A stretch of DNA of 11,021 nt from a virus: UHGV virus genome UHGV-0316254. One strand, given 5' to 3'. Made by a program: the position numbers and the translations under genes. Below the pieces are notes generated by a model, which saw only the letters and a program-made list of their open reading frames with translations, was not told where the DNA came from and did no database searches. Every line of letters starts with the position of its first letter. The stretch's first letter is position 1. Positions 7,614 through 7,740 of this stretch are shown here, piece after piece.

Positions 7614-7643
7614 TTGACAAACGTTATTAAAATAGTGTATTAT
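7614..7643 (+). promoter_or_regulatory. Strong sigma70-type promoter upstream of the helicase operon
   Basis: TTGACA (7614-7619), 18 nt, TATTAT (7638-7643). An A-tract and a second TTGACG (7584-7589) lie just upstream. Confidence 0.55.
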
Positions 7644-7680
7644 GGTAAGTATGAAGGGGAGAAAACCTTCTGAACTTTTC

Positions 7681-7713
7681 AGCCCTGGGCGGGGTAACTG
7701 CCTGGGGCTTTTT
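7681..7713 (+). terminator. Intrinsic terminator-like hairpin in the operon leader (attenuator or 3' end of a short RNA)
   Basis: AGCCCTGGGC (7681-7690) pairs with GCCTGGGGCT (7700-7709) as a 10-bp stem with two G-U pairs and a 9-nt loop, followed by TTTTT (7709-7713). It sits about 30 nt after the predicted transcription start and 14 nt before the Shine-Dalgarno of the first ORF. Confidence 0.5.
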
Positions 7714-7740
7714 GCATCCAAAATCCGAAGGAGGTAGTTA

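Follow-up and report, generated by a model that had tools for sequence, protein, structure and literature searches.

In the immunity system of satellite phage P4, PLE transcripts are prematurely terminated under the control of the CI RNA (C4 family, RF01695). In the lambdoid PR'-tR' system, a short terminated RNA (6S/StxS) accumulates as a by-product (PMC7547250), and Q acts as the antiterminator. At PalpB-tB of Pseudomonas aeruginosa, the element bound by the regulator AlpA is located between -35 and -10 (PMC7969949), and in the Gifsy-1 prophage a single promoter gives rise to both the short terminated RNA IsrK and a read-through mRNA (PMC4825925). Here, we describe a comparable locus in an 11,021-nt stretch of the virus genome UHGV-0316254 (hereafter, the window), in which a promoter, P1, is followed by a predicted intrinsic terminator, t1, directly ahead of an operon encoding a 57-aa protein (ORF57), a ribbon-helix-helix (RHH) protein and a helicase. 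A first-pass annotation of the window had proposed either a short regulatory RNA of about 60 nt or a transcription-attenuation leader controlling read-through into the operon. The comparative sequence evidence indicates that t1 is real and under selection, and that expression of the operon must pass through it; we consider it very probable that t1 is a functional promoter-proximal terminator.

P1 (7614 to 7643, plus strand) is a sigma-70-type promoter composed of a -35 hexamer TTGACA (7614 to 7619), an 18-nt spacer and a -10 hexamer TATTAT (7638 to 7643). Sequence reading and a consensus scan revealed a match to consensus at 11 of 12 positions and the highest promoter score in the window, bearing out the promoter named in the first-pass annotation. 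Two matches of at least 11/12 were present in the window, versus 0.28 expected from 200 dinucleotide shuffles. P1 is probably strong and constitutive, and its transcript is predicted to start at about 7650/7651. The heptamer AACGTTA (7620 to 7626), located directly behind the -35 hexamer and within the spacer, is a candidate binding element for an antiterminator. A -10-like sequence, TAAGTAT (7646 to 7652), sits over the predicted start and not downstream of it. The region also contains the direct repeats TTATGGTA(A/G)GT at 7601 to 7611 and 7640 to 7650, 39 bp apart, the second of which overlaps the P1 -10 hexamer and the predicted start; a further pair, GGTTCATTGTG, is found at 7402 to 7412 and 7477 to 7487, 75 bp apart. 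Both pairs may bind protein, for instance as iterons or operators.

The terminator t1 (7681 to 7713, plus strand) has arms at 7681 to 7692 and 7698 to 7709, a GGUAA loop at 7693 to 7697 and a U-run at 7709 to 7713, giving the GC-rich stem-loop with an immediate U5 on the transcribed strand that is expected of an intrinsic terminator. It is the top terminator-like match in the window and ranks second in stability among 33-nt folds of the plus strand. The hairpin and U5 tract of the first-pass annotation were recovered at these positions, with the correction that the stem comprises 12 pairs (8 G-C, 1 A-U and 3 G-U; -22.5 kcal/mol) and not 10; T7709, the first U of the run, is able to pair with A7681. 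Between the predicted start and t1 lies a 5'-proximal hairpin, HP1 (7653 to 7670, plus strand; GAAGG-GGAGAAAA-CCUUC), which has a 5-bp stem and a purine-rich 8-nt loop resembling a Shine-Dalgarno (SD) sequence, and which appears in every predicted fold. The predicted short RNA, extending from about 7650/7651 to about 7713 (approximately 62 to 65 nt), is made up of HP1 and the terminator fold (z = -4.1 versus shuffles). The post-terminator leader that follows (7714 to 7740, plus strand) carries the SD GAAGGAGG at 7727 to 7734, which starts 13 nt past the last T of the U-run, is left accessible in the predicted folds and precedes a TTG start codon at 7741. No promoter-like site was detected by consensus scan from t1 to the start codon. 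Since there is no room for a further promoter before the SD, the downstream genes are expected to depend on read-through of t1.

The P1-leader-ORF57 unit is a mosaic cassette found at about 45 loci in Enterobacterales genomes and metagenomes (numbered L001, L002 and so on), where it heads either an RHH-helicase operon in capsid-bearing, satellite-like islands or a winged helix-turn-helix (wHTH) gene in defence islands. The presence of the same arrangement at about 45 independent loci places the feature beyond chance. The cassette was detected in only 9 of 5,426 complete Escherichia coli genomes. In E. coli XYEH3934 (NZ_CP110978), the locus is 99.9% identical to the window and lies in an island beside tRNA-Thr. 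In the remaining eight E. coli genomes, the part similar to the window extends exactly from the -35 hexamer to the ORF57 stop codon; the next gene in seven of these encodes a 305-aa wHTH protein within an island at tRNA-Leu, and in the eighth, CEA106S (L004), IS100 truncates ORF57, leaving no next gene. The tRNA-Leu islands (L002, L003, L005, L008, L011 and L012) carry Eco29kI restriction-modification, a serine recombinase and Kiwa (KwaAB). Six further loci were recovered from species-representative genomes of Citrobacter, Kluyvera, Kosakonia, Buttiauxella and Enterobacter, and two from IMG/VR. A metagenome scan with a 19-mer from HP1 returned 44 matches; about 13 chance matches, such as L051 inside an ABC-F gene, were discarded, leaving about 30 true copies, each with TTGACA upstream and an ORF57 homologue downstream. 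In five metagenome loci (L027, L034, L042, L053 and L063), a promoter and leader identical to those of the window are joined to a divergent ORF57 variant that is otherwise found behind an unrelated leader, designated type B. Thus, leader and ORF57 variants are exchangeable.

Selection on the leader was evident among 12 distinct sequences of the window's leader type (type A). The mean pairwise difference was 0.50 upstream of the -35 hexamer, 0.0 in the 13 nt TTGACAAACGTTA of the -35 region, 0.28 in the rest of the spacer and the -10 hexamer, 0.04 in the leader (7654 to 7733) and 0.13 in ORF57. The leader contained fewer variable columns (15/82) than either the third codon positions of ORF57 (24/50; Fisher p = 4e-4) or the variable portion of the spacer together with the -10 hexamer (18/27; p = 6e-6). 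ORF57 itself varied at 9 to 11 of 50 first and second codon positions, and its amino acids were conserved. The post-terminator leader was nearly invariant in type A. The element TTGAC(A/T)-(A)AACGTT recurred in leader types A, B, D (L019) and E and in a remnant of the cassette in Pantoea.

A covariance model built on type A matched the type C leader of Klebsiella at 52 bits. Among 15 distinct A and C sequences, 100% of cells in 17 pairs formed standard pairs; in the t1 stem, three pairs displayed compensatory double changes, three displayed one-sided wobble changes and none was broken. The covariation score was reached by 0 of 500 shuffles, and structures slid by 1 to 3 columns paired far worse. 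The first-pass annotation had named a hairpin not conserved at homologous loci among the grounds for giving up its reading; on this point, the opposite was found. HP1 is identical at 18 of 18 positions between types A and C despite differences in the linker, the terminator stem and ORF57, and UCCAAAAUCC in the post-terminator leader is likewise kept between the two types. All five HP1 pairs are invariant within A and C, and covariation therefore cannot be scored for this hairpin. The model gave no match to types B, D and E, and these types thus support the architecture by analogy only.

This broader architecture was read from the upstream regions of the helicase family, which was followed down to 39% identity. 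Leader types B, C, D and E stand behind helicases that are only 39 to 77% identical, and the intact cases share one order: promoter, 5' hairpin, terminator, SD, ORF57 homologue, RHH gene and helicase gene. Type B (L006, L013 and L014) has a TTGACA-N18-TATAGT promoter, a GUUCUG/CAGAAC 5' hairpin and a 14-pair GC hairpin followed by UUUUCU. Type D (L019, L024 and L025) has a 5' hairpin and then a 12-pair bulged hairpin, with a U-tract of the form U5-6AU4-5 in L019 and L025 and a poor one (UUAUUACAUUU) in L024. Type E (L017) has a type-B-like hairpin with one mismatch, and L026 has a longer leader with a weak GC hairpin only. In types B, D and E, a 5' hairpin of other sequence takes the place of HP1, and the loops differ among types. 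In the Pantoea copy, ORF57 contains an in-frame stop, the downstream island genes are absent and the hairpin is lost. Collectively, four or five unalignable leader types share a common architecture.

The leader was compared with the known classes of conditional terminator. Alternative anti-terminator pairing, which the first-pass annotation had suggested looking for, was not found by RNA folding: minimum free energy and centroid folds contained only HP1 and the terminator, the approximately 30 nt before t1 are taken up by HP1, and a small CUGAA/UUCAG pairing overlaps the t1 stem by only 2 bp. An open reading frame from ATG at 7651 to TAG at 7735 was rejected as a leader peptide, as relatives have AAG or AGG in place of its ATG and tolerate 1-nt indels that break the frame. 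A search of the whole window and of L001 10900 to 16000 yielded no Rfam family for the leader at E <= 1, indicating that it is not a known riboswitch, C4/CI RNA or small RNA (sRNA). A C4/CI antisense immunity RNA (RF01695) was rejected on the same Rfam result and on the lack of complementary boxes above shuffles. No minus-strand promoter match of at least 9/12 was found in 7650 to 7800, where the best was 8/12 at 7772 to 7745; countertranscript attenuation of the pT181/pIP501 rep type was rejected for want of an antisense promoter. HP1 was also rejected as a boxB/nut site, given its 8-nt loop and the lack of a boxA (CGCUCUUA-like) in the 30 nt before t1. An RNAduplex scan of both window strands for targets of the short RNA gave non-self matches within the shuffle range. 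The attenuation proposal of the first-pass annotation thus holds in the sense of a selected promoter-proximal terminator on whose read-through the operon depends, and not in the sense of classical attenuation.

A second unit of the same design precedes the capsid genes. In the window, P2 (10630 to 10658, plus strand; TTGACA-N17-CATAAT, TG-extended) and the first approximately 230 nt of its leader occupy 10630 to 10890; at about 10891, an IS3-family element cuts the leader short. The intact unit spans 15231 to 15815 in L001. Across islands, P2 has the near-consensus form TTGACA-N17-(C/T)A..AT and lies between the replication and capsid blocks; P2 and a terminator were present in 9 of 9 complete islands examined (L001, L007, L009, L014, L019, L020, L021, L025 and L026). 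In intact islands, the P2 leader is 250 to 550 nt long, is free of open reading frames (ORFs) and ends in a canonical intrinsic terminator, t2, about 70 nt ahead of the first gene of the capsid block. These leaders are mosaic in sequence and fold far better than shuffles (z of -3.8 to -8.6), with no Rfam match in L001 10900 to 16000 at E <= 1. The P2 leader may be a large structured non-coding RNA, or an origin or packaging region. The occurrence of two promoter-terminator-operon units in one small phage-like element matches the lambdoid PR'-tR' logic.

Taking these findings together, we propose a model in which the P1 transcript would fold at once into HP1 and then into the GC-rich hairpin with its U-run. 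Most RNA polymerases would stop at about 7713 and release an RNA, about 63 nt long, with two hairpins. The genes for ORF57, the RHH protein and the helicase would form an early or replication operon, expressed only by polymerases that read through t1. Read-through would most likely depend on a protein that modifies RNA polymerase at the promoter or immediately beyond it, in the manner of lambda Q or AlpA, with the invariant TTGACA-AACGTTA, the invariant HP1 or both as its loading site and with ORF57, another island protein or a helper-phage protein as the candidate factor. An equivalent gate, consisting of P2, its structured leader and t2, would stand ahead of the capsid operon. We regard the chances of this full model, factor-dependent antitermination included, as evenly balanced. 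Its more specific extension, that the islands are switched on by processive antitermination rather than de-repression, through a so far unrecognised antiterminator acting at both P1 and P2, is a speculative proposal that we consider improbable as it stands.

As the leader has neither a competing fold nor a leader peptide or antisense promoter, the RNA itself does not appear to decide read-through, and for an RNA without a switch of its own the choice lies between a fixed leak and protein-imposed read-through. A fixed, leaky t1 would scale down a strong promoter and keep the replication proteins at a low constant level, with the short RNA as a by-product; any regulation could then act at initiation, for example through binding of the RHH protein or ORF57 to AACGTTA or to the TTATGGTA(A/G)GT repeats. 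Both the plain attenuator and its form regulated at initiation are possible but doubtful. The absence of any alternative structure, leader peptide, antisense promoter or recognisable antiterminator gene is consistent with such a scheme, as are the repressor-like RHH gene within the operon and the repeats that flank and overlap P1. However, a hairpin of -22 kcal/mol with U5 behind a near-consensus promoter would be an expensive route to a low level of expression, the design is repeated at a second operon with a long structured leader, and the invariance of HP1 and of the region from the linker to the SD suggests more than a plain stop signal. Antitermination is favored on three grounds: the late operon has a second copy of the design; the interval from -35 to -10, to which lambda Q and AlpA bind (PMC7969949), holds an invariant element; and HP1 is invariant in sequence and not merely structured. 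Several observations weigh on the other side. The covariation reflects few independent events (A versus C) in an alignment fitted to the model, and the conservation within type A could be largely due to recent horizontal spread. The start site, the efficiency of termination and read-through are all predictions. Recombination of the leader with different ORF57 variants speaks against tight co-evolution of ORF57 and leader as a pair, no Q-, N- or AlpA-family protein was detected among the island ORFs with Pfam and NCBIfam, and no clear sigma-dependent pause element was seen within the initially transcribed region as placed by the predicted start.

Other explanations assign the decisive role to the RNA. 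The RNA of about 63 nt could be the main product, an sRNA of the StxS or short IsrK kind acting in trans on host, helper or island mRNAs, an explanation we hold to be unlikely; a variant in which the short RNA activates translation of its own read-through isoform is unlikely to the same degree. The compact two-hairpin shape with a Rho-independent tail is typical of stable sRNAs, HP1 including its loop is invariant across A and C, and StxS (PMC7547250) and IsrK (PMC4825925) provide published precedents, but complementarity within the window did not exceed that of shuffled controls, the single-stranded linker is variable and accommodates indels, a common seed is lacking because types B, D and E have no sequence in common with A, and Rfam gave no match. 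Control of termination by an RNA-RNA interaction in the leader, as with P4 CI, P1 C4 and N15 CA RNA or in a pT181/pIP501-like system, would fit the position of the leader, ahead of a replication operon in an element that has about 1.3 kb free of ORFs upstream and in which a repressor gene is not visible. We judge it very improbable, given that no C4-family or other Rfam match was obtained at E <= 1, that neither internal nor distal complementary boxes were found in the window, that the best antisense promoter reaches just 8/12 and that the leader is too short for partners of the seqA/seqC type. Finally, promoter-like matches overall are not commoner in the window than in shuffles, as would be expected if functionless promoter-like and terminator-like motifs had come to lie side by side by chance; the occurrence at about 45 loci, the covariation of the stem, conservation above that of synonymous sites and the persistence of the architecture across unalignable variants effectively refute this explanation, and its probability is negligible.

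The first gene of the operon, ORF57 (7741 to 7914, plus strand; TTG start), encodes a small, basic protein with three helices; its family is narrow, and it is always the first gene behind the leader. Database gene calls of 90 to 94 aa correspond to ORF57 extended upstream through the promoter. The family is very small, with 8 clusters among 5.8 billion proteins and 22 representatives among 1.84 billion. An AlphaFold2 (AF2) model predicts three helices (pLDDT 94.5), and searches found no Pfam, PHROG, NCBIfam or PDB relative and no informative structural or sequence neighbor. Among phages, the sole match was a hypothetical protein of a Vibrio phage (34% identity, E = 1e-3). The second gene (7914 to 8078, plus strand) encodes a 54-aa RHH (Arc/CopG-like) protein with weak RHH_4, TacA and HicB Pfam matches and PHROG matches to transcriptional regulators and Arc-like repressors; its start overlaps the ORF57 stop (TAATG), making translational coupling probable, and the protein is a candidate autoregulator of the operon. 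The third gene (8044 to 9492, plus strand) encodes a superfamily 2 (SF2) helicase of the DEAD/ResIII type (482 to 494 aa; Pfam DEAD and ResIII matches), annotated as a DEAD/DEAH box helicase in NZ_CP110978. Its family is confined to Enterobacterales, some relatives carry a C-terminal helix-turn-helix, and it is presumed to be the replication protein of the island. Directly upstream of P2, two orphan proteins of 127 aa (9900 to 10283) and 112 aa (10276 to 10614) occupy a location resembling that of lambda Q, with no similarity to known families found. The 127-aa protein is kept across island types A, C and D (31 to 44% identity), and the acidic 112-aa protein is kept in types A and C and in L025.

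Complete islands (L001 and L007) contain a short tyrosine recombinase, an ORF-free region of about 1.3 kb, the ORF57-RHH-helicase operon and several orphan genes, followed by a distant lambda-E-type capsid gene, a tape-measure-like gene, a Dit-like gene and a full integrase. This gene set gives the island the appearance of a small phage-satellite-like element. The capsid gene (12122 to 13159 in L007; 16473 to 17504 in L001) has a Pfam Phage_cap_E match, and a tblastn search of 50,697 phage records with its protein gave no relative at E <= 1e-5. Neither a portal nor a terminase was seen in the island, and the gene set is unusual for a satellite. Leaders A and B had no similarity to any phage in the collection, and literature searches turned up no description of the island family and returned nothing for the leader sequence. 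In the window, a 193-aa tyrosine recombinase with the catalytic domain only (5788 to 6369, minus strand) was observed, and most helicase-type islands have such a short recombinase at the left border of their ORF-free region; it measures 185 to 205 aa in L007, L020, L021, L023 and L026, with a full-length integrase encoded additionally at the island's far end. Within the ORF-free region upstream of P1, conservation is most widespread at 7484 to 7543, whose hairpins (7491 to 7505 and 7510 to 7532) are formed by the inverted repeats TGTAGC-GTA-GCTACA and CGGCTC-N11-GAGCCG, with four pairs showing compensatory double changes across islands. This piece could be an origin, an operator or a non-coding RNA element.

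At the right end of the window, 10891 to 11021 is the end of the IS3-family element (IS911/ISEc52-like), copies of which on thousands of plasmids share 95 to 100% identity with it. The insertion has probably separated the late part of this island copy from its promoter. At the left, a gtrABC-like O-antigen modification cassette (742 to 3330, minus strand) encodes GtrA (2968 to 3330), a GT2 glycosyltransferase (2057 to 2971) and a DUF2142 membrane protein (742 to 2055). The most stable hairpin of the window, at about 705 to 740, lies between convergent genes and is probably a bidirectional terminator.

The leader offers a handle on the silencing and induction of capsid-gene-bearing islands in Escherichia, Enterobacter, Klebsiella, Citrobacter and related genera. 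If read-through is factor dependent, the inducer, be it an island gene or a helper phage, could be screened for genetically with a 130-bp P1-t1 reporter. Should an antiterminator acting at P1 and P2 exist, it would mean that a satellite-like element senses its inducer in a new way, and it might belong to a new antiterminator family; the P1 RNA of about 63 nt and the structured P2 RNA of 250 to 550 nt would then constitute new classes of non-coding RNA. Abundant terminated leader RNAs of mobile elements have repeatedly proved to be regulators, as with StxS and IsrK, and given these precedents the predicted short P1 RNA and the long, structured leader of P2 are both plausible candidates for hitherto undescribed regulatory RNAs. 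By analogy with StxS (PMC7547250) and IsrK (PMC4825925), the terminated RNA may additionally act in trans.

The class of mechanism is well known. Rfam has no entry for the leader, ORF57 forms an orphan family, and no earlier description of the island family seems to exist. Like lambdoid PR'-tR', the locus combines a strong, probably constitutive promoter with an intrinsic terminator within tens to about 200 nt, just before an operon of a phage-derived mobile element, and the arrangement is repeated here before the capsid genes. It differs from PR'-tR' in that no Q-family gene was found among the island ORFs, no recognisable pause-inducing -10-like element lies downstream of the predicted start and the early or replication operon is gated as well as the late one. 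As at PalpB-tB, the terminator lies immediately upstream of the first gene, and the invariant AACGTTA, a candidate binding element, occupies the position of the AlpA-binding element; unlike that system, the island has no PF05930 homologue, and the three-helix ORF57 has no detectable relation to AlpA. The predicted production of short and read-through forms from one promoter, with the first ORF just beyond the terminator, resembles IsrK, whereas the predicted folds here leave the SD accessible and nothing indicates that the short form acts on the long form. In comparison with P4, the leader is much shorter and has no C4/CI-type RNA or complementary seqA/seqC boxes. As in P4, however, a satellite-like element would silence its replication operon by premature termination behind a constitutive promoter, and not by a classical repressor.

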